Translations under genes and position numbers: made by a program
The notes under the pieces: generated by a model
Told to the model about the DNA's origin: nothing
Database searches by the model: none
The model's input: the letters and a program-made list of their open reading frames with translations, nothing else
Source of the DNA: Crenarchaeota archaeon 13_1_40CM_3_52_17
Lineage (GTDB): Archaea; Thermoproteota; Bathyarchaeia; 40CM-2-53-6
NCBI GenBank assembly: GCA_001918745.1
Contig: MNGN01000043.1
Coordinates: 1 to 49,183, forward strand
Length of the DNA stretch: 49,183 bases
Direction of reading: 5' to 3'
Shown here: positions 4,721 through 12,292 of the stretch, in pieces
Position numbering within the stretch: the first letter of the stretch is position 1
How the letters are laid out: every line of letters begins with the position of its first letter

Positions 4721-5710
4721 ATGAAGAGCTTGCAAGTGCCCACACTCCCATTGCAGATCAGCGAGTTCAGGGCTGATGACTACGGGAAGTTGGCCCACGT
4801 CTTCGGCTCCATCTTTCCTGATTACGACCGGACACCGGAGGAGTGGCGGTTTGAAGATGAGAGTCTCGACAAGTCAAAGTTTCATTTCAAACGATACTCG
4901 TGTTTTAGCCCGGAGGTCCAAGACGCTGTTGGGTTTGCTCAGTGTCAACATATTCCCTGGATGTATCATCCAAAGAAGCTCTGGGTCGATATCTGGGTCG
5001 ATCCACAGCACCAGAGGAAAGGCATTGGGAATGCACTCTACGAGCGGCTGAGCCAGGACTTCAAAGTTCTTGGCGCCGTCACATCTTGGACGGGCGTGAG
5101 GGAGGACATGCCGTTTCCGATCAAGTTCGCCATGAACCGAGGGTTCCATGAGAAGATGAGGGCTTGGGAATCACGTCTCAACCCGGCCACGGTCAACCTC
5201 TTAGCTTTCCAAAAATATCTGGACAAAGCGTCCCAACATCGAATCCACTTCGTCACATTAGCCGACGAAATGAGTAGCGATCCTGCATGTTATGCCAAAC
5301 TTCATGCTCTGGTTCAAGCCGTCTCAGCAGATATTCCTCGACCTGAACAGTTCACTCCTGTCTCTTTCGAGCAATGGTCAGCTTTCGAGATGAAAAGTCC
5401 CAACTTGGTCCCTCAAGGCTACATGATCGCGAAAGATGGCGACAGGTACGTGGGCATGAGCACTGTGTGGAAGGCTCAGAAGGACCCCAAGGGACTCTAT
5501 CAGGGATTGACGGGAGTCGTACGCGACTATCGGGGACGTGGAATAGCGGTCGCTTTGAAGCTCAAGGTCATCGAGTTCGCAAGGAACAACAAGTACGAGA
5601 AGCTGAAGACCTGGAACGACTCGACCAACGCGCCCATGCTGGGGATTAACGTGAAGCTTGGCTTCAAACGAGAGGTCGGCTGGATAACTTTCGAGAAGAA
5701 CCTGGCATAG
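4721..5710 (+). CDS. Tandem-domain GNAT acetyltransferase
   Basis: Two acetyl-CoA loops (VDPQHQRKGIG and TGVVRDYRGRGIA) and NxxxNAPMLGINVKLGF. Confidence 0.9.
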   Translation: MKSLQVPTLPLQISEFRADDYGKLAHVFGSIFPDYDRTPEEWRFEDESLDKSKFHFKRYSCFSPEVQDAVGFAQCQHIPWMYHPKKLWVDIWVDPQHQRKGIGNALYERLSQDFKVLGAVTSWTGVREDMPFPIKFAMNRGFHEKMRAWESRLNPATVNLLAFQKYLDKASQHRIHFVTLADEMSSDPACYAKLHALVQAVSADIPRPEQFTPVSFEQWSAFEMKSPNLVPQGYMIAKDGDRYVGMSTVWKAQKDPKGLYQGLTGVVRDYRGRGIAVALKLKVIEFARNNKYEKLKTWNDSTNAPMLGINVKLGFKREVGWITFEKNLA

Positions 5711-9614: not shown

Positions 9615-10079
9615 CTATTCGAAGTCAACAGACTTCTCTGATGTTGGTCCTGAACGATGTCTTGCGTTCCGGCTCGTCCCCAGGGACCCAAGATATGACC
9701 CGTTCTCACTCCTGTACTCGATCGGAGGAAATCTGCCACCGAACGCCGCTTCCCACATTCGAACCCACGAAAAGACAACCTTGTCAAGATCGCGACATCG
9801 AGCTTCAGGAACTACCCAAACGAGTTTTGCGATCACATCGCCCGACCGAATCATGAATAAAAGCCGCGTTAGGTGACCTTGAATGTGAAGCGGCTGAAAC
9901 CCAGGCCCTTCTTCTTCGAAGAGCACTATTTCATCTGATTTCGTCAATCCAGACCCATCCCATCGGAACAGAAGATGTGAACCCGACTGAGCATCATAGT
10001 ATGCAAATGACCCTCCATTTCCTGATCTTGTTCGTGGTCGAAGGTTCAATTTTCGAAGAAGGCGAGTAACAGACATCAA
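9615..10079 (-). CDS. Hypothetical protein
   Basis: A 154-aa ORF filling the gap with protein-like composition. No family recognised. Confidence 0.55.
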   Translation of the reverse strand: MMSVTRLLRKLNLRPRTRSGNGGSFAYYDAQSGSHLLFRWDGSGLTKSDEIVLFEEEGPGFQPLHIQGHLTRLLFMIRSGDVIAKLVWVVPEARCRDLDKVVFSWVRMWEAAFGGRFPPIEYRSENGSYLGSLGTSRNARHRSGPTSEKSVDFE

Positions 10080-10267
10080 GTAAGCATCGGCCGAGTCTCA
10101 GATTGTTGAAGTCGTTTTTCACCCGCTATTATCCAGAGAGAAAGTAGAATTCCCGAATCCGTTCTCTCAAAGGAGGCTGCGGTTTGGTCTTTCTCGGCGT
10201 AGCCGACTGTTGAGGGCCAGTTTCAGAAGAAAAACGGACGATAATTCGGTAAGCTGCAAGGCTTTGG

Positions 10268-10330
10268 CTAAGGCGTTCCCTTAGCATGTGGCCCGCAACA
10301 TCCGCAACAGCACGGGCAGCAATCGTCCAA
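10268..10330 (-). CDS. Cys-rich micropeptide MDDCCPCCCGCCGPHAKGTP (metallothionein-like)
   Basis: TTG start at 10330 with GAGGTGA Shine-Dalgarno 5 nt upstream (10336-10342). 7 Cys in 9 consecutive residues. TAG at 10268-10270. Confidence 0.7.
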   Translation of the reverse strand: MDDCCPCCCGCCGPHAKGTP

Positions 10331-10346
10331 ATACTTCACCTCTGTA

Positions 10347-10410
10347 AGTAACGTTAGTTACTATTGCAAAGTATTTAAGCAGTCAAGTTTCTGTTACGTA
10401 ACTTGGTAAC
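10347..10410. promoter_or_regulatory. Divergent promoter with putative HxlR operator sites
   Basis: AGTAAC-N4-GTTACT (10347-10362), TACT-N7-AGTA (10359-10373), AT-rich TATA-like TATTTAAG (10372-10379), perfect palindrome GTTACGTAAC (10393-10402) and a further GTAAC (10406-10410). Confidence 0.6.
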
Positions 10411-10413
10411 CCT

Positions 10414-10767
10414 ATGGTTAGGCTAGTAGAAGGAGAACCATGCTGCACGTGCCCATGCCCATGCGAAGGAATAATCGAAATCATCGGCAAAAAATGGGCC
10501 CTCTGCGTACTAGCACTACTAGGAAACGACGGAACCCTACGATTCAACAAGCTGGCCGAAAAACTTCCAGGAATAAGCGCGAAAACACTGACAGAGGTCT
10601 TGAAAGATCTTCAGCGAACCGGACTGGTTAAGCGTCAAGCATTCGCCGAAATTCCTCCACGAGTAGAATACCATCTGACCAAGGAAGGGAACGAGCTGAC
10701 AATGCTGGTGGCGCCGCTGATGGTTTGGGCTGACAACAGGACAGGGCTCATCAAGCTGGAATCTTAG
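10414..10767 (+). CDS. HxlR/DUF24 winged-helix transcription regulator with Cys-rich N-terminus
   Basis: IIGKKW, LRFNKL, GISAKTL and EIPPRVEYHLT motifs. N-terminus contains PCCTCPCPC. Confidence 0.92.
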   Translation: MVRLVEGEPCCTCPCPCEGIIEIIGKKWALCVLALLGNDGTLRFNKLAEKLPGISAKTLTEVLKDLQRTGLVKRQAFAEIPPRVEYHLTKEGNELTMLVAPLMVWADNRTGLIKLES

Positions 10768-12292
10768 GATACTTCATCCTAGACTCGACAAGTTTTCCAG
10801 CCCGCTCTTCCAGCTGAGCCGCTTCCTTCCGAAAATCGGAGACCTGTCTCGCGATCTTCTCCACGTACTTTTGATCATCGAGACTTGCTAGGTTGATCAG
10901 TACGTTGCTTGCGGCTCCTTCGATGGCCGCACGTGCCGCCGAGACAGCAGTCACCACATCAGAAAGCGCATTAGTGGACCCCTTCTCCGCAGTCTCGCGA
11001 GCCAGCCGCAAGACTCTGACTGAACAGTCGAGGGTTGACAGCGGGGTATCGGATGCTTTGATGGTTGCTTCTTCTATCGCTTTCTTGCGAGCCTCCGGTT
11101 GATCCTTCGATAGCTTGAACGCTTTCATTACCGTGTCGAAGGCTTCGGTGTCCTCGACGACAAGGCGTAGAAGTTTCTGGCGCAGAGCTTCGCCCTCCTT
11201 CACCACCTCGTTGAGCTTCTCTACATCAGGCGGCGCCTCTTTCTTTCCCAGCGTTATTCTGGCAACCATGCAGACGAGACCCGCTGCGAGCGCGGCTATG
11301 TATGCGGAGACGCTTCCGCCTCCCGGAGTTGCCTTCTTGGAGGCTACTTCTTCACTGAACGAAGCCAAACTCTGGTCGGTCAATGTTGAAGCTCGTAGCG
11401 CGAAGAGCTTCCTCTCTAGGACCTGGTCCGGGCTGAAATTCTCCAATCGGAGATAGAACTCTGCCGAGTCGACAAGAGATTCCATTGGTGCGAGCCCAAT
11501 GATCTCGCTCCCGACAACCGGCACCCCGTAGCGGTCGGCGAACATCTTGACCAGCTCGTAGGCTTTGAACAACTGGCTCTTGCGATAATTCGTGAGGTTC
11601 ATAGAGACCTGAACTATCCCCCGCTCTTTCAGCTCAAACCCGAGAGCCTTCACGAAGGCGAGGCCGCCGTCTTTCGCTCGTAGTTGATGCGCTATCCTCT
11701 TCGCGACATCTAGGTCCTTCGTTCCAAGGTTGACGTTGTAGGCTATCAGTATCTCTCGGGCTCCAACAGCCGTCGCTCCCGCAGTAGGATGGATCTTCTC
11801 CGGACCAAAATCCGGCTTCTTCGCAGAGTCCTTGCCAATCTTCTCCCTGAGGCCCTCAAACTCTCCGTCTCGGACGTCGGCGAGGTTTCGTCTTTCGGGA
11901 GTAGTGGCCGCTTCCTCGTATAGGAAGACAGGCACGTGAAATTTCTCGGCAAACTCCTGGCCGAAAGAACGGGCGAGAGAAACACAGTCGTCCATGGTTA
12001 CACCGGATATTGGGACGAAGGGGATGACGTCAACAGCGCCCATTCGCGGATGCTCGCCTTTGTGGTGTCTCAGATCAATAAGCTCAATCGCTCTCTGGCT
12101 AGCGGCTAGAGCAGCGTCTTTCACGTGTCCCGGTTCGCCGACGAAGCTTATCACGGACCGGTTGTGGTCCGGGTTCGATTCCACATCGAGAAGTGTGACG
12201 CCAGGGGTCGTTCTTATCGCGTCAGCAATGGATTCTATGACCTCCTTTCTTTGACCTTCACTGAAGTTGGGGACACATTCGACTAGCCGCAA
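10751..12292 (-). CDS. ftcD: Glutamate formimidoyltransferase-cyclodeaminase
   Basis: ECVPNFSEG, DHNRSV, GEHPRMGAVDV and a C-terminal TPGGGSVSA cyclodeaminase domain. Confidence 0.95.
   Translation of the reverse strand: MRLVECVPNFSEGQRKEVIESIADAIRTTPGVTLLDVESNPDHNRSVISFVGEPGHVKDAALAASQRAIELIDLRHHKGEHPRMGAVDVIPFVPISGVTMDDCVSLARSFGQEFAEKFHVPVFLYEEAATTPERRNLADVRDGEFEGLREKIGKDSAKKPDFGPEKIHPTAGATAVGAREILIAYNVNLGTKDLDVAKRIAHQLRAKDGGLAFVKALGFELKERGIVQVSMNLTNYRKSQLFKAYELVKMFADRYGVPVVGSEIIGLAPMESLVDSAEFYLRLENFSPDQVLERKLFALRASTLTDQSLASFSEEVASKKATPGGGSVSAYIAALAAGLVCMVARITLGKKEAPPDVEKLNEVVKEGEALRQKLLRLVVEDTEAFDTVMKAFKLSKDQPEARKKAIEEATIKASDTPLSTLDCSVRVLRLARETAEKGSTNALSDVVTAVSAARAAIEGAASNVLINLASLDDQKYVEKIARQVSDFRKEAAQLEERAGKLVESRMKYPKIPA

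Follow-up and report, generated by a model that had tools for sequence, protein, structure and literature searches.

The window, by which we mean the whole stretch of 49,183 nucleotides analyzed, contains a micro-gene for a poly-Cys peptide that lies divergent to the gene of an HxlR-family regulator with a Cys cluster of its own. The coding frame, Shine-Dalgarno (SD) sequence, start, and Cys core of the micro-gene are under purifying selection, and sequence comparison identifies the micro-ORF as a true coding gene under selection whose SD is conserved. Micro-gene and hxlR are either both present or both absent and form a fixed two-gene unit. We give an even chance to the reading that the micro-ORF is translated and would constitute, together with the divergent HxlR, a self-contained sense-and-sequester unit for a thiophilic agent, likeliest a soft metal. 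The peptide would then be kept repressed by HxlR and serve to trap metal or relieve thiol stress.

The original prediction had described a minus-strand poly-Cys micro-ORF for a 20-aa product, led by GAGGTGA, a 5-nt spacer, and TTG, and all of these elements were located (Table 1). Likewise, the divergent HxlR with a Cys-rich N terminus was found where it had been placed, with a gap of 83 bp (10331-10413) from the micro-gene TTG to the hxlR ATG. The ORF listing for the window gives the same micro-gene frame, opened at the GTG at 10339 (23 aa). This GTG lies within the SD, and in several of the orthologous loci it is either closed off or not in frame, which makes it the less likely start. The micro-gene transcript is probably short and monocistronic, with a length of roughly 115 to 120 nt. 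A scan for bacterial-type promoters and terminators, which is not designed for archaea, returned 0 sites. The 24 sequencing runs listed as containing the locus included none of RNA.

Table 1. Positions of the micro-gene, the divergent regulator gene, and the sequence signals between and around them in the window
Feature	Position	Strand	Description
Micro-gene	10268..10330	-	TTG start, 20 codons, TAG stop; product MDDCCPCCCGCCGPHAKGTP, 20 aa, 7 Cys
Micro-gene start	10330-10328	-	TTG
Micro-gene stop	10270-10268	-	TAG
Shine-Dalgarno sequence	10342-10336	-	GAGGTGA; spacer AGTAT (10335-10331, 5 nt), then TTG
Alternative micro-gene start	10339-10337	-	In-frame GTG; would give 23 aa; judged less likely
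TTTTT tract	10230..10234	-	33 nt past the micro-gene stop; candidate archaeal oligo-T terminator
Site 2	10348..10361		Inverted repeat GTAAC-TAAC-GTTAC between TATA-like box and micro-gene SD; candidate HxlR operator
TATA-like box	10369..10378		TTAAATACTT (reverse complement AAGTATTTAA); candidate TATA box common to both divergent genes
Site 1	10393..10410		GTTAC/GTAAC half-sites just 5' of the hxlR ATG; candidate autoregulatory operator
hxlR	10414..10767	+	HxlR-family winged-helix regulator, 117 aa; PF01638, E 8e-25, 87 bits versus cutoff of 20.8
Cys-cluster codons	10441..10464	+	C10 C11 x C13 x C15 P C17, directly 5' of helix 1

In a six-frame translation of the organism's 1.78-Mb assembly, the micro-ORF was the densest Cys stretch (7 Cys in 12 residues), followed by 9 other segments with 6 in 12. 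Six first-order Markov genomes, which served as a control for chance, averaged 0.5 segments with 6 or more Cys in 12 residues, and segments with 7 or more did not occur. Taken alone, the Cys density of the micro-ORF is thus only modestly unusual; the weight of the case comes from conservation. The micropeptide had no Pfam match at E values up to 0.01 and no NCBIfam match at E values up to 1, and a 35-aa orthologue found no usable match in the ESM Atlas. None of nine micropeptide versions (from eight loci) was present in a collection of 15 billion proteins, which indicates that the micro-gene was missed by gene callers, to which it is invisible. As far as can be tested, the peptide is therefore unannotated, as had been claimed. 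The accompanying suggestion that a C had been lost at 10290-10294, so that the intact peptide would end in ...CCGPTC*, was contradicted. Soil-run contigs over 10156-10340 showed 0 differences (four runs, two of which are apparently one data set), and a co-occurring strain differed by substitutions at 10287, 10288, and 10310 only, with no indel inside the micro-ORF. The orthologues L016 and L129 end in ...CCGPTAKGTP*, with the same frame and length as the window peptide. A homopolymer error or frameshift at this position was accordingly discarded.

Orthologous loci with upstream DNA numbered 33, all from soil Bathyarchaeia. The genomic set of 19 came from 17 further genomes of the genus, from one sister genus, and from the window, and metagenomes supplied the other 14. 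The original prediction had named loss of the Cys ORF and SD from orthologous loci as grounds for its refutation, and this check did not refute it: the divergent poly-Cys ORF was present in 19/19 genomic loci and in 14/14 metagenomic loci with an HxlR at 75 to 97% identity. The orthologous micropeptides were 17 to 35 aa long and contained 6 to 8 Cys in 33/33 loci, and by our count 29 of them were distinct. An SD, a spacer of 5 to 9 nt, and an in-frame start were found in all 19 genomic loci, the set in which the SD was scored. The SD read GAGGTGA in 18 of these and GGGGTGA in one, and the start codons were TTG (9 loci), ATG (8 loci), GTG (1 locus), and CTG (1 locus). Genome-wide, GAGGTGA occurred without enrichment (221 found versus ∼243 expected); the anti-SD motif of the 16S rRNA was not found in the assembly, from which the 16S 3' end is absent. 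Runs of at least five T's followed 15 to 44 nt past the micro-gene stop in 15/19 loci.

Codon differences in the Cys core comprised 21 synonymous versus 1 nonsynonymous, in contrast to 35 synonymous versus 91 nonsynonymous in the tail of the micropeptide, which evolves freely. The pN/pS ratio was below 1 in 15/15 pairs of micro-genes of equal length. In-frame indels were frequent in the core, and frame, start, and Cys codons had survived many substitutions. Gly and Pro positions in the core were conserved together with the Cys. The 19 genomic micropeptides consisted of 28% Cys, 21% Gly, and 0.2% Phe, with no Trp or Tyr.

The control-region pattern accompanied hxlR wherever a family genome had an orthologue that was not cut, i.e., in the window's own genome and 17 others (16 of the same genus and G024). 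It was single copy except in G014, which had four copies, and was missed only in G011, where the contig end cuts hxlR. None of the six family genomes without an HxlR orthologue carried it. On the far side of hxlR, FTCD was fixed in 17/19 loci; the genes past the micro-gene varied. The neighbors, which differed among loci, were FTCD, a methyltransferase, HhH-GPD, a reductase, or unknown small ORFs. The gene next to the micro-gene was convergent in 8/19 loci and fell into at least five unrelated classes, without a cysteine-metabolism gene among them. No metal-handling gene adjoined the module in the genus loci examined, and the 154-aa ORF at 9615-10079 had no match in Pfam or NCBIfam.

The 83-bp spacer has a fixed layout, with one TATA-like box between two GTAAC-N3/4-GTTAC repeats. 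In 29 distinct control regions, the TATA-like block and the SD region GAGGTGAAG were each at least 90% conserved. The TATA-like block is the sole A/T-rich conserved block of the spacer, and its distance from the hxlR ATG is constant; its spacing suggests that the box may be used in both directions. Site 2 overlies the predicted start of the micro-gene transcript. Its GTAACT is at least 90% conserved, and the second half-site varies by clade among GTTAC, CTAAC, and CTTAC. Site 1 reads GTTAC-CAA-GTTAC overlapping GTTACGTAAC in the window and GTAAC-N3-GTTAC in most relatives, with at least 90% conservation of the GTTAC half. Conservation of the repeats points to them as putative HxlR operators. 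Strict GTAAC-N3/4-GTTAC palindromes were as frequent genome-wide as expected (3 found versus 3.1 expected), which gives no basis for a wider HxlR regulon. Among the three strict sites is C34, a decayed version of the control region, and the 109-aa C34 protein had no match in Pfam or NCBIfam.

The match of the regulator to PF01638 lies above the gathering score and places it in the HxlR family. Its N terminus is MVRLVEGEPCCTCPCPCEG, with the cluster in the stretch ...EPCCTCPCPCEG, and C10, C11, C13, C15, C17, and C31 were invariant in alignments of 13 and of 18 orthologues. An AlphaFold2 model (pLDDT of 84 to 90 over residues 31 to 90, low confidence for residues 1 to 24) predicted helices at residues 17 to 25, 27 to 39, 44 to 50, 56 to 69, and 90 to 109 and strands at 72 to 77 and 83 to 88, i.e., the winged helix-turn-helix with C-terminal dimerization helix of the family; helix 1 begins at residue 17. 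The nearest solved relatives are HxlR, YybR, and YodB of Bacillus subtilis, and C15 aligns with the N-terminal Cys of HxlR (7bze, 7bzd), YybR (4a5m), and YodB. By alignment, the CCxCPCPC cluster is thus placed at the sensing-Cys position of the HxlR family. HxlR, YybR, and YodB sense formaldehyde, hypochlorite or diamide, and quinones, and we take all solved relatives found (HxlR, YybR, YodB, and QsrR) to be aldehyde, oxidant, or quinone sensors and none a metal sensor. With these thiol-switch members (QsrR being from S. aureus), the regulator shares the Pfam family, the winged-helix fold, and a Cys at the start of helix 1. In contrast to their one or two Cys, it has five in eight residues in addition to C31. 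The cluster resembles the CxC-type metal sites of CopY and copper-fist factors. The literature searched contained no description of archaeal HxlR regulators with Cys clusters and no study of an archaeal member.

The original prediction of a minimal archaeal module was apt, but it is no stand-alone invention: the micropeptide module is the derived, truncated, tail-less extreme of a wider archaeal family that has not been described. In 63 more distant loci, an HxlR of the CxCP type faced a Cys/His-rich coiled-coil protein of mostly 50 to 70 aa (3 to 6 Cys and up to 8 His; e.g., MNDECGCGMHHGRHDSYCGCGMHGHEQGY...) at the position homologous to that of the micro-gene. These long partners carry a basic patch in addition to the coiled coil, and the regulators facing them had a CxC motif in 62/63 cases. 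The mean number of Cys before HxlR helix 1 was 4.9 in 36 micropeptide loci versus 2.3 in the 63 long-partner loci. The distant relatives have a similar AAGTATTTAAAC block at the place of the TATA-like box and TCACCTC-type SDs ahead of the partner gene. An ABC ATPase was encoded directly 3' of the long partner on the same strand in 23/63 loci (3/3 ATPases tested passed the cutoff of the DrrA exporter subfamily), and either an ABC exporter ATPase or a ModA-like binding protein followed in 28/63. The long-partner family comprised at least 488 protein clusters and ranged over Bathyarchaeia, Methanomicrobiales, Methanolobus, Archaeoglobus, and others. An HMM of the long form matched 0/36 micro-type loci; it is by position and composition that micropeptide and long partner appear to be homologous.

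In the ESM Atlas, a 66-aa relative matched only hypothetical clusters and one cluster partly labeled DUF5320. The C terminus of DUF5320 (PF17253) resembles the C-terminal coiled coil of the long partners, some of which NCBI so names, but all long partners scored below the Pfam cutoff (12 to 16 bits versus 27), and the micropeptide lacks this tail and had no match. Titles and abstracts of the DUF5320 literature contained nothing on function.

Under the metal reading, HxlR dimers would occupy both repeats, one dimer at each predicted transcription start, and keep the two genes repressed. The Cys cluster of the regulator may bind a thiophilic agent, likeliest a soft metal ion such as Cu(I), Zn, Cd, Hg, or As(III), upon which HxlR would come off the DNA and the small transcript would yield a burst of peptide. 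The 6 to 8 thiolates of the peptide could then enclose the same agent as a metal-thiolate cluster, like a minimal metallothionein. The micropeptide would be the tail-less end point of a series of Cys/His-rich small proteins that face CxCP-type HxlR regulators, often 5' of an ABC exporter. A hint of metal comes from the distant partners, which are rich in His plus Cys and are often encoded ahead of an exporter.

The micropeptide has the composition of a metallothionein, with low mass, a Cys content within ∼15 to 35%, Cys-Cys and Cys-X-Cys motifs, and few or no aromatics, and by Pfam, NCBIfam, and, for the 35-aa orthologue, the ESM Atlas, it belonged to none of the described metallothionein families. 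Fungal copper metallothioneins of the Neurospora crassa type have ∼25 aa and 7 Cys, and the micropeptide shares with them gene encoding, size class, about one-third Cys, Cys-X-Cys/Cys-Cys motifs, Gly/Ser richness, and the lack of aromatics. No sequence relationship was evident, the host here is archaeal, and the regulator is a winged-helix HxlR instead of a copper-fist factor. To our knowledge, gene-encoded chelators of this size are known in fungi and not in prokaryotes, and the carrier organisms lack glutathione. The bacterial SmtA/BmtA and MymT have ∼50 to 56 aa and a defined fold or His ligands and are controlled by SmtB (ArsR type) and CsoR-type regulators. They also pair a gene for a Cys-rich chelator with a metal-sensing repressor beside or above it, and smtA and smtB are divergent, as are the genes here, where metal binding by the peptide is predicted. 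The micropeptide differs from them by its 17 to 35 aa and the lack of a Pfam or NCBIfam model, and its regulator differs by belonging to PF01638.

We consider it unlikely that gene and regulator serve a stress other than metal, with HxlR sensing an oxidant, an electrophile (aldehyde or quinone), or sulfane sulfur and the peptide acting as a sacrificial or buffering polythiol. The alignment of C15 with the N-terminal Cys of HxlR, YybR, and YodB would suit this, and so would the reductase genes near the micro-gene (8/19 loci), which fit with electrophile stress. They comprise an aldo/keto reductase on the same strand within 1 kb downstream in 7/19 loci, only 53 to 79 nt past the micro-gene in L013, L015, and L017, and a nitroreductase-like ORF in L018. 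However, the reductase link is limited to one clade, and the next gene is convergent in 8/19 loci. In the 63 distant loci the partners are rich in His as well (up to 8 His), which would be of little use against electrophiles or oxidants, and 28/63 precede one of the exporter ATPase or ModA-like genes noted above.

It is improbable, in our estimate, that the peptide is instead a partner of HxlR, a cosensor or antirepressor that shares a metal or disulfide with CCxCPCPC and so tunes or relieves repression. Strict co-occurrence, the divergent pairing, and the joint rise in Cys content of regulator and partner (means of 4.9 versus 2.3) are what such a role would lead one to expect, and the basic patch and coiled coil of the long partners are typical of protein-protein or DNA contact. 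The rapid evolution of the tail and the many in-frame indels within the core nevertheless better suit a loosely constrained chelator than a specific interface, and the exporter link of the long partners indicates a role outside transcription.

Very improbable is a mechanism in which the peptide is irrelevant and ribosome pausing at the Cys codons gauges the supply of cysteine or Cys-tRNA and so controls read-through to the next gene. Cys-responsive attenuators exist: the polycysteine short ORFs of mycobacteria are leaderless, head cysteine-metabolism operons, and act by ribosome stalling (10.1101/834739). They resemble the micro-ORF in being unannotated short ORFs with a run of Cys codons, and in our loci the micro-gene is separated from the next gene by an oligo-T tract, the aldo/keto reductase is close on the same strand in L013, L015, and L017, and in L009 an ORF begins immediately after the micro-gene stop. 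The micro-ORF, in contrast, is SD led, is not the first ORF of a cysteine-metabolism operon, and has a downstream gene that is variable, convergent in 8/19 loci, and never one for cysteine metabolism; its fixed partner is the divergent regulator. Attenuation would leave this constant Cys-cluster regulator unexplained, and the conservation of core Gly and Pro along with Cys also argues against it.

That the stretch is no gene at all, and is a chance TGC/TGT-rich ORF or a DNA or RNA element (a protein-binding repeat or small RNA), is scarcely credible: a lone 20-codon ORF is weak evidence, and the predicted transcript, folded for the window only, folds slightly better than shuffles (z of -1.85; 6/200 shuffles equal it), but the conservation of start and SD and the codon analyses largely refute this idea, since frame, start, and Cys codons are kept in 33/33 loci despite substitutions and in-frame indels, the 21-to-1 synonymous excess in the core includes TGC-TGT changes that would alter the antisense frame, and Rfam had no match in 9900-10900 at E values up to 1. 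A RiPP precursor was rejected because no maturase, cyclase, or radical-SAM enzyme is encoded nearby; in addition, the Cys run starts from residues 3 to 5 and leaves no room for a leader.

Our literature search found no paper on an archaeal metallothionein and, supplements aside, no description of a micropeptide-HxlR pairing. Going beyond the sense-and-sequester unit itself, we tentatively propose a metal homeostasis system new to Archaea, in which HxlR would sense metal via an N-terminal CxC/poly-Cys site and a divergent Cys/His-rich protein would hand over or buffer metal for a DrrA-type ABC exporter. In one genus of soil Bathyarchaeia, this system would have been pared down to the smallest known ribosomal metallothionein (17 to 35 aa) and a regulator of the same chemistry; no archaeal metallothionein and no metal-sensing HxlR would have preceded them. 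The micro-gene is absent from the protein collection searched but has been retained at all orthologous loci that we examined, and it leads to a larger overlooked family whose members in cultured methanogens allow bench tests. If HxlR senses metal, the known role of the HxlR family would be widened; should it respond to oxidants or electrophiles instead, a novel kind of ribosomal thiol buffer would be represented by the peptide.

The minus strand of the window carries a short reading frame, here called the micro-gene, whose product MDDCCPCCCGCCGPHAKGTP has 7 Cys among 20 residues and whose start codon is separated by 83 bp from that of hxlR. The poly-Cys frame, its SD and the divergent 83-bp layout were found on that strand as the original prediction had described them. 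Six-frame translation of the host's own 1.78 Mb assembly (completeness, 80%) ranked this ORF first in Cys density, with 7 Cys per 12 residues against 6 per 12 in nine other segments, and six Markov-simulated genomes contained no segment with 7 per 12; taken alone, such a record within one genome is only suggestive. The predicted transcript (10225-10346, minus strand) has GGACGAU at its start codon and, immediately ahead of the U-run, the complementary AUCGUCC; pairing of the two would enclose the entire ORF as a single hairpin (minimum free energy of -40.5 kcal/mol, z -1.85, for the window transcript alone).

Coordinates of the micro-gene, hxlR and the intervening control region. Conservation refers to an alignment of 29 distinct spacers, with blocks listed in the direction of the micro-gene.
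Feature	Position	Strand	Remark
HxlR-family regulator	10414-10767	+	PF01638, E 8e-25
Site 1, GT(A/T)AC-N3-GTTAC	10393-10410		next to hxlR ATG; right half at least 90% conserved
TTAAATACTT (TATA-like)	10369-10378		sole A/T-rich block; at least 90% conserved
Site 2, GTAAC-N3/4-GTTAC	10348-10361		left half GTAACT at least 90% conserved
GAGGTGAAG (SD block)	10334-10342		at least 90% conserved
GAGGTGA (SD)	10342-10336	-	sequence reading; followed by 5-nt spacer
TTG start of micro-gene	10330-10328	-	followed by 19 more codons
TAG stop of micro-gene	10270-10268	-	sequence reading

Apart from the host, 17 of the 21 genomes of the genus and 1 of the 3 from elsewhere in the family encode an HxlR orthologue (74 to 97% identity); the nearest named records came from soil "Candidatus Bathyarchaeota archaeon" MAGs (91 to 93% identity). 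All 19 loci with upstream DNA, the window included, had a small, divergently oriented ORF containing a poly-Cys core (17 to 35 aa, 6 to 8 Cys), placed 5 to 9 nt behind GAGGTGA (18 loci) or GGGGTGA (1 locus) and starting in frame with TTG (9), ATG (8), GTG (1) or CTG (1). Since 14 of 14 further metagenomic loci (HxlR at 75 to 97% identity) also contained the ORF, the expected retention in orthologous loci was borne out in 33/33 cases for the ORF and in all 19 scored for the SD, counts that overstate independence because the loci are phylogenetically related. GAGGTGA is without genome-wide enrichment and the 16S 3' end is absent from the assembly, leaving it a candidate SD in this host. The 19 genomic and 14 metagenomic loci yielded 29 distinct micropeptides (e.g., MSCCCCGPGCGCGG..., MGCCCCGCCGPGCC..., MENCCSCCGGCCGGCCGP... 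and MDGCECPCGCGCCGPGF), which had diverged by many substitutions and in-frame insertions. pN/pS was below 1 in 15/15 equal-length pairs. Differing codon pairs were synonymous in 21 cases versus 1 non-synonymous within the Cys core and 35 versus 91 in the hydrophilic tail, and TGC-to-TGT changes are silent in the micro-gene frame only. The Cys frame is under selection, and the micro-gene is a coding gene. None of nine versions occurred in a collection of 15 billion proteins; the micropeptide has therefore never been reported by gene callers, and the term unannotated holds as far as that collection reaches.

The suggestion that an extra C at 10290-10294 would give ...CCGPTC* with 8 Cys did not hold. 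Soil metagenome contigs matched 10156-10340 with 0 differences, which ruled out a frameshift in the micro-gene; four runs were compared, of which X1 and X3 are probably one data set because their figures were identical. A second strain in these runs carried substitutions at 10287, 10288 and 10310, resulting in His15 to Thr and a silent Cys change, a variant shared with the genome behind the orthologous locus L016; its indels, restricted to 10182 and 10205, leave the ORF untouched. The orthologues of L016 and L129 end in ...CCGPTAKGTP* in the same frame.

The regulator begins with MVRLVEGEPCCTCPCPCEG. Its C10, C11, C13, C15, C17 and C31 were invariant in alignments of 13 and of 18 orthologues, and C15 aligned with the N-terminal Cys of Bacillus subtilis HxlR and YybR. 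An AlphaFold2 model (mean pLDDT, 72) had a confident winged-helix core. Because residues 1 to 24 were of low confidence and helix 1 started at residue 17, the model places the Cys cluster on a flexible arm running into helix 1.

Both genes occur together. A search pattern that covers both the TATA-like box and the SD adjoined hxlR in the host's genome and in 17 more from the family whose orthologue is not truncated (16 of the same genus plus G024), and was found in none of six family genomes without an hxlR orthologue (completeness, 68 to 93%). G011, where hxlR is cut by a contig end, was without it. The reversed pattern, run as a control, gave one match in 41 genomes, and one unrelated-looking match lay in G034. 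The micro-gene and the Cys-cluster HxlR thus form a fixed pair with a conserved, compact control region. The pattern was single copy everywhere except in G014, a MAG with 6% contamination, where contigs C55, C56, C58 and C106 held four copies and at least three hxlR copies; either the module has truly multiplied or the MAG mixes strains.

Beyond hxlR, 17/19 loci had a convergent formiminotransferase-cyclodeaminase gene. The neighbor beyond the micro-gene was convergent in 8/19 (methyltransferase, amidohydrolase, nitroreductase-like or unnamed), a same-strand ORF of 154 to 183 aa of no assigned kind in 4/19, a same-strand aldo/keto reductase within 1 kb in 7/19, and HhH-GPD in 1/19. The 154-aa ORF of the window (9615-10079, minus strand) matched no Pfam or NCBIfam family; L004, L014 and L016 retain it on the same strand, 126 to 172 nt past the micro-gene, a position from which it is missing in the other clades. 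L014 has a further poly-Cys ORF, MSCCGPGCGCCGPGCCSSEQSSGNTRRS (L116:697-802, G013:C66), some 1.1 kb past its first micro-gene. This second ORF is accompanied by GAGGTGA (7-nt spacer) and a single GTTAC half-site but by neither a TATA box nor hxlR; its upstream region continues out of a C-terminal aldo/keto reductase fragment, a junction that looks like a rearrangement scar.

Besides the blocks listed in the table, ACTT was at least 90% conserved between site 1 and TTAAATACTT in the 29 spacers. Because archaeal TATA boxes lie about 26 nt ahead of the transcription start and TTAAATACTT is the sole A/T-rich block, this single box could serve both directions. Judged from spacing and conservation, the starts would fall at ∼10347 (minus) and ∼10400 (plus), each within one repeat; a start-overlapping site is the classic position of archaeal repressors. 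A run of at least 5 T followed the micro-gene stop by 15 to 44 nt in 15/19 loci, which fits a short monocistronic RNA. Genome-wide, the GTAAC-N3/4-GTTAC palindrome was found 3 times versus 3.1 expected, no more than chance. One copy, GTAAC-ATGT-GTTAC (C4, ∼660-700, outside the window), lies ahead of a 179-aa ORF and directly behind a TTTATATA box; this copy could be a further HxlR target or, given that expectation, a chance occurrence. On C34 (∼4930-5010, likewise outside), a copy of the control region, ∼75% similar, retains the half-sites but has a degraded TATA. It sits between an RtcA-like gene and a 109-aa Cys protein (LCCPF motif), which had no Pfam or NCBIfam match and whose homologue directly follows the micro-gene in L009.

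HxlR relatives at 50 to 70% identity, from other Bathyarchaeia, Methanomicrobiales, Methanolobus vulcani, Archaeoglobus and others, have a CxCP motif (e.g., ICLCPLEG). Divergent from them, behind the same SD and a similar AAGTATTTAAAC block, lies a small protein (long partner), mostly of 50 to 70 aa (range, 39 to 97), with a Cys/His-rich N-terminus, an RRRFLTKAEK-like basic patch and a coiled coil. These contain 3 to 6 Cys and up to 8 His; two entries show none because trimming at the first Met removed their N-terminus. An HMM built from 11 of them, run upstream of hxlR loci, matched 61/79 loci at 50 to 70% HxlR identity, 2/27 at 45 to 50%, 0/46 below 45% (mostly bacteria) and 0/36 of the micropeptide type. 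The protein database held 488 clusters at E ≤ 1e-3, most "hypothetical" and few named DUF5320; scores against Pfam DUF5320 were under its cutoff, and titles and abstracts on DUF5320 offered nothing functional. A CxC motif was present in 62/63 regulators with a long partner and 35/36 with a micropeptide, with a mean of 2.3 versus 4.9 Cys ahead of helix 1. An ABC ATPase followed the long-partner gene on the same strand within 136 nt in 23/63 loci, and 3/3 tested ATPases passed the DrrA exporter subfamily cutoff. In 5/63 loci (L020, L044, L132, L148 and L151) it was replaced by a ModA-like protein (SBP_bac_11, under ModA cutoffs) with the N-terminus MSKQNNLHVFSAG..., seemingly without signal peptide, which could bind an oxyanion or a metal in the cytoplasm. 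Short divergent Cys-rich ORFs were also found upstream of hxlR in other lineages (L170, L176, L050 and L058), e.g., MCAECGCGCGAPATKKAKPEKPKK (24 aa, L170) and MSSCKSEKKKETCCSKKEKKPC (22 aa, L176). Because separate lineages have their own such ORFs, the coiled-coil tail may have been lost more than once. By position, common promoter layout and composition, the window peptide looks like the putative metal-binding head of a long partner without its tail, the sequences themselves not being alignable.

We propose that HxlR, bound to the two repeats, would repress both genes until a thiophilic agent loads its Cys arm and releases it from DNA, whereupon the micropeptide would sequester the same agent. 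A soft metal is our favored agent, at roughly even probability, because long partners join Cys with His and acidic residues in front of exporters and because the micropeptide resembles small metallothioneins in composition. The main rival, a switch responding to oxidant, electrophile or sulfane sulfur with the micropeptide as a thiol sink, agrees with known HxlR-family chemistry and with the reductase genes near the micro-gene in one clade; we consider it unlikely. That the micropeptide is a co-sensor or anti-repressor appears less probable still. A Cys-sensing leader of the mycobacterial leader-peptide type (10.1101/834739) is very improbable, since the genes beyond the micro-gene vary and none belongs to cysteine metabolism. 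That there is no gene at all is scarcely credible.

Literature searches returned no described archaeal metallothionein, nor any study of cysteine clusters in the HxlR regulators of archaea. The nearest parallels are the 25-aa copper thioneins of fungi, SmtA/SmtB, MymT, and the yeast pairing of a copper-cluster factor with CUP1. A gene-encoded Cys-rich chelator, here a candidate, and a thiol-switch HxlR regulator are thus each of a known kind; new are the pairing of such a chelator with HxlR, the size of the peptide and the domain of life.
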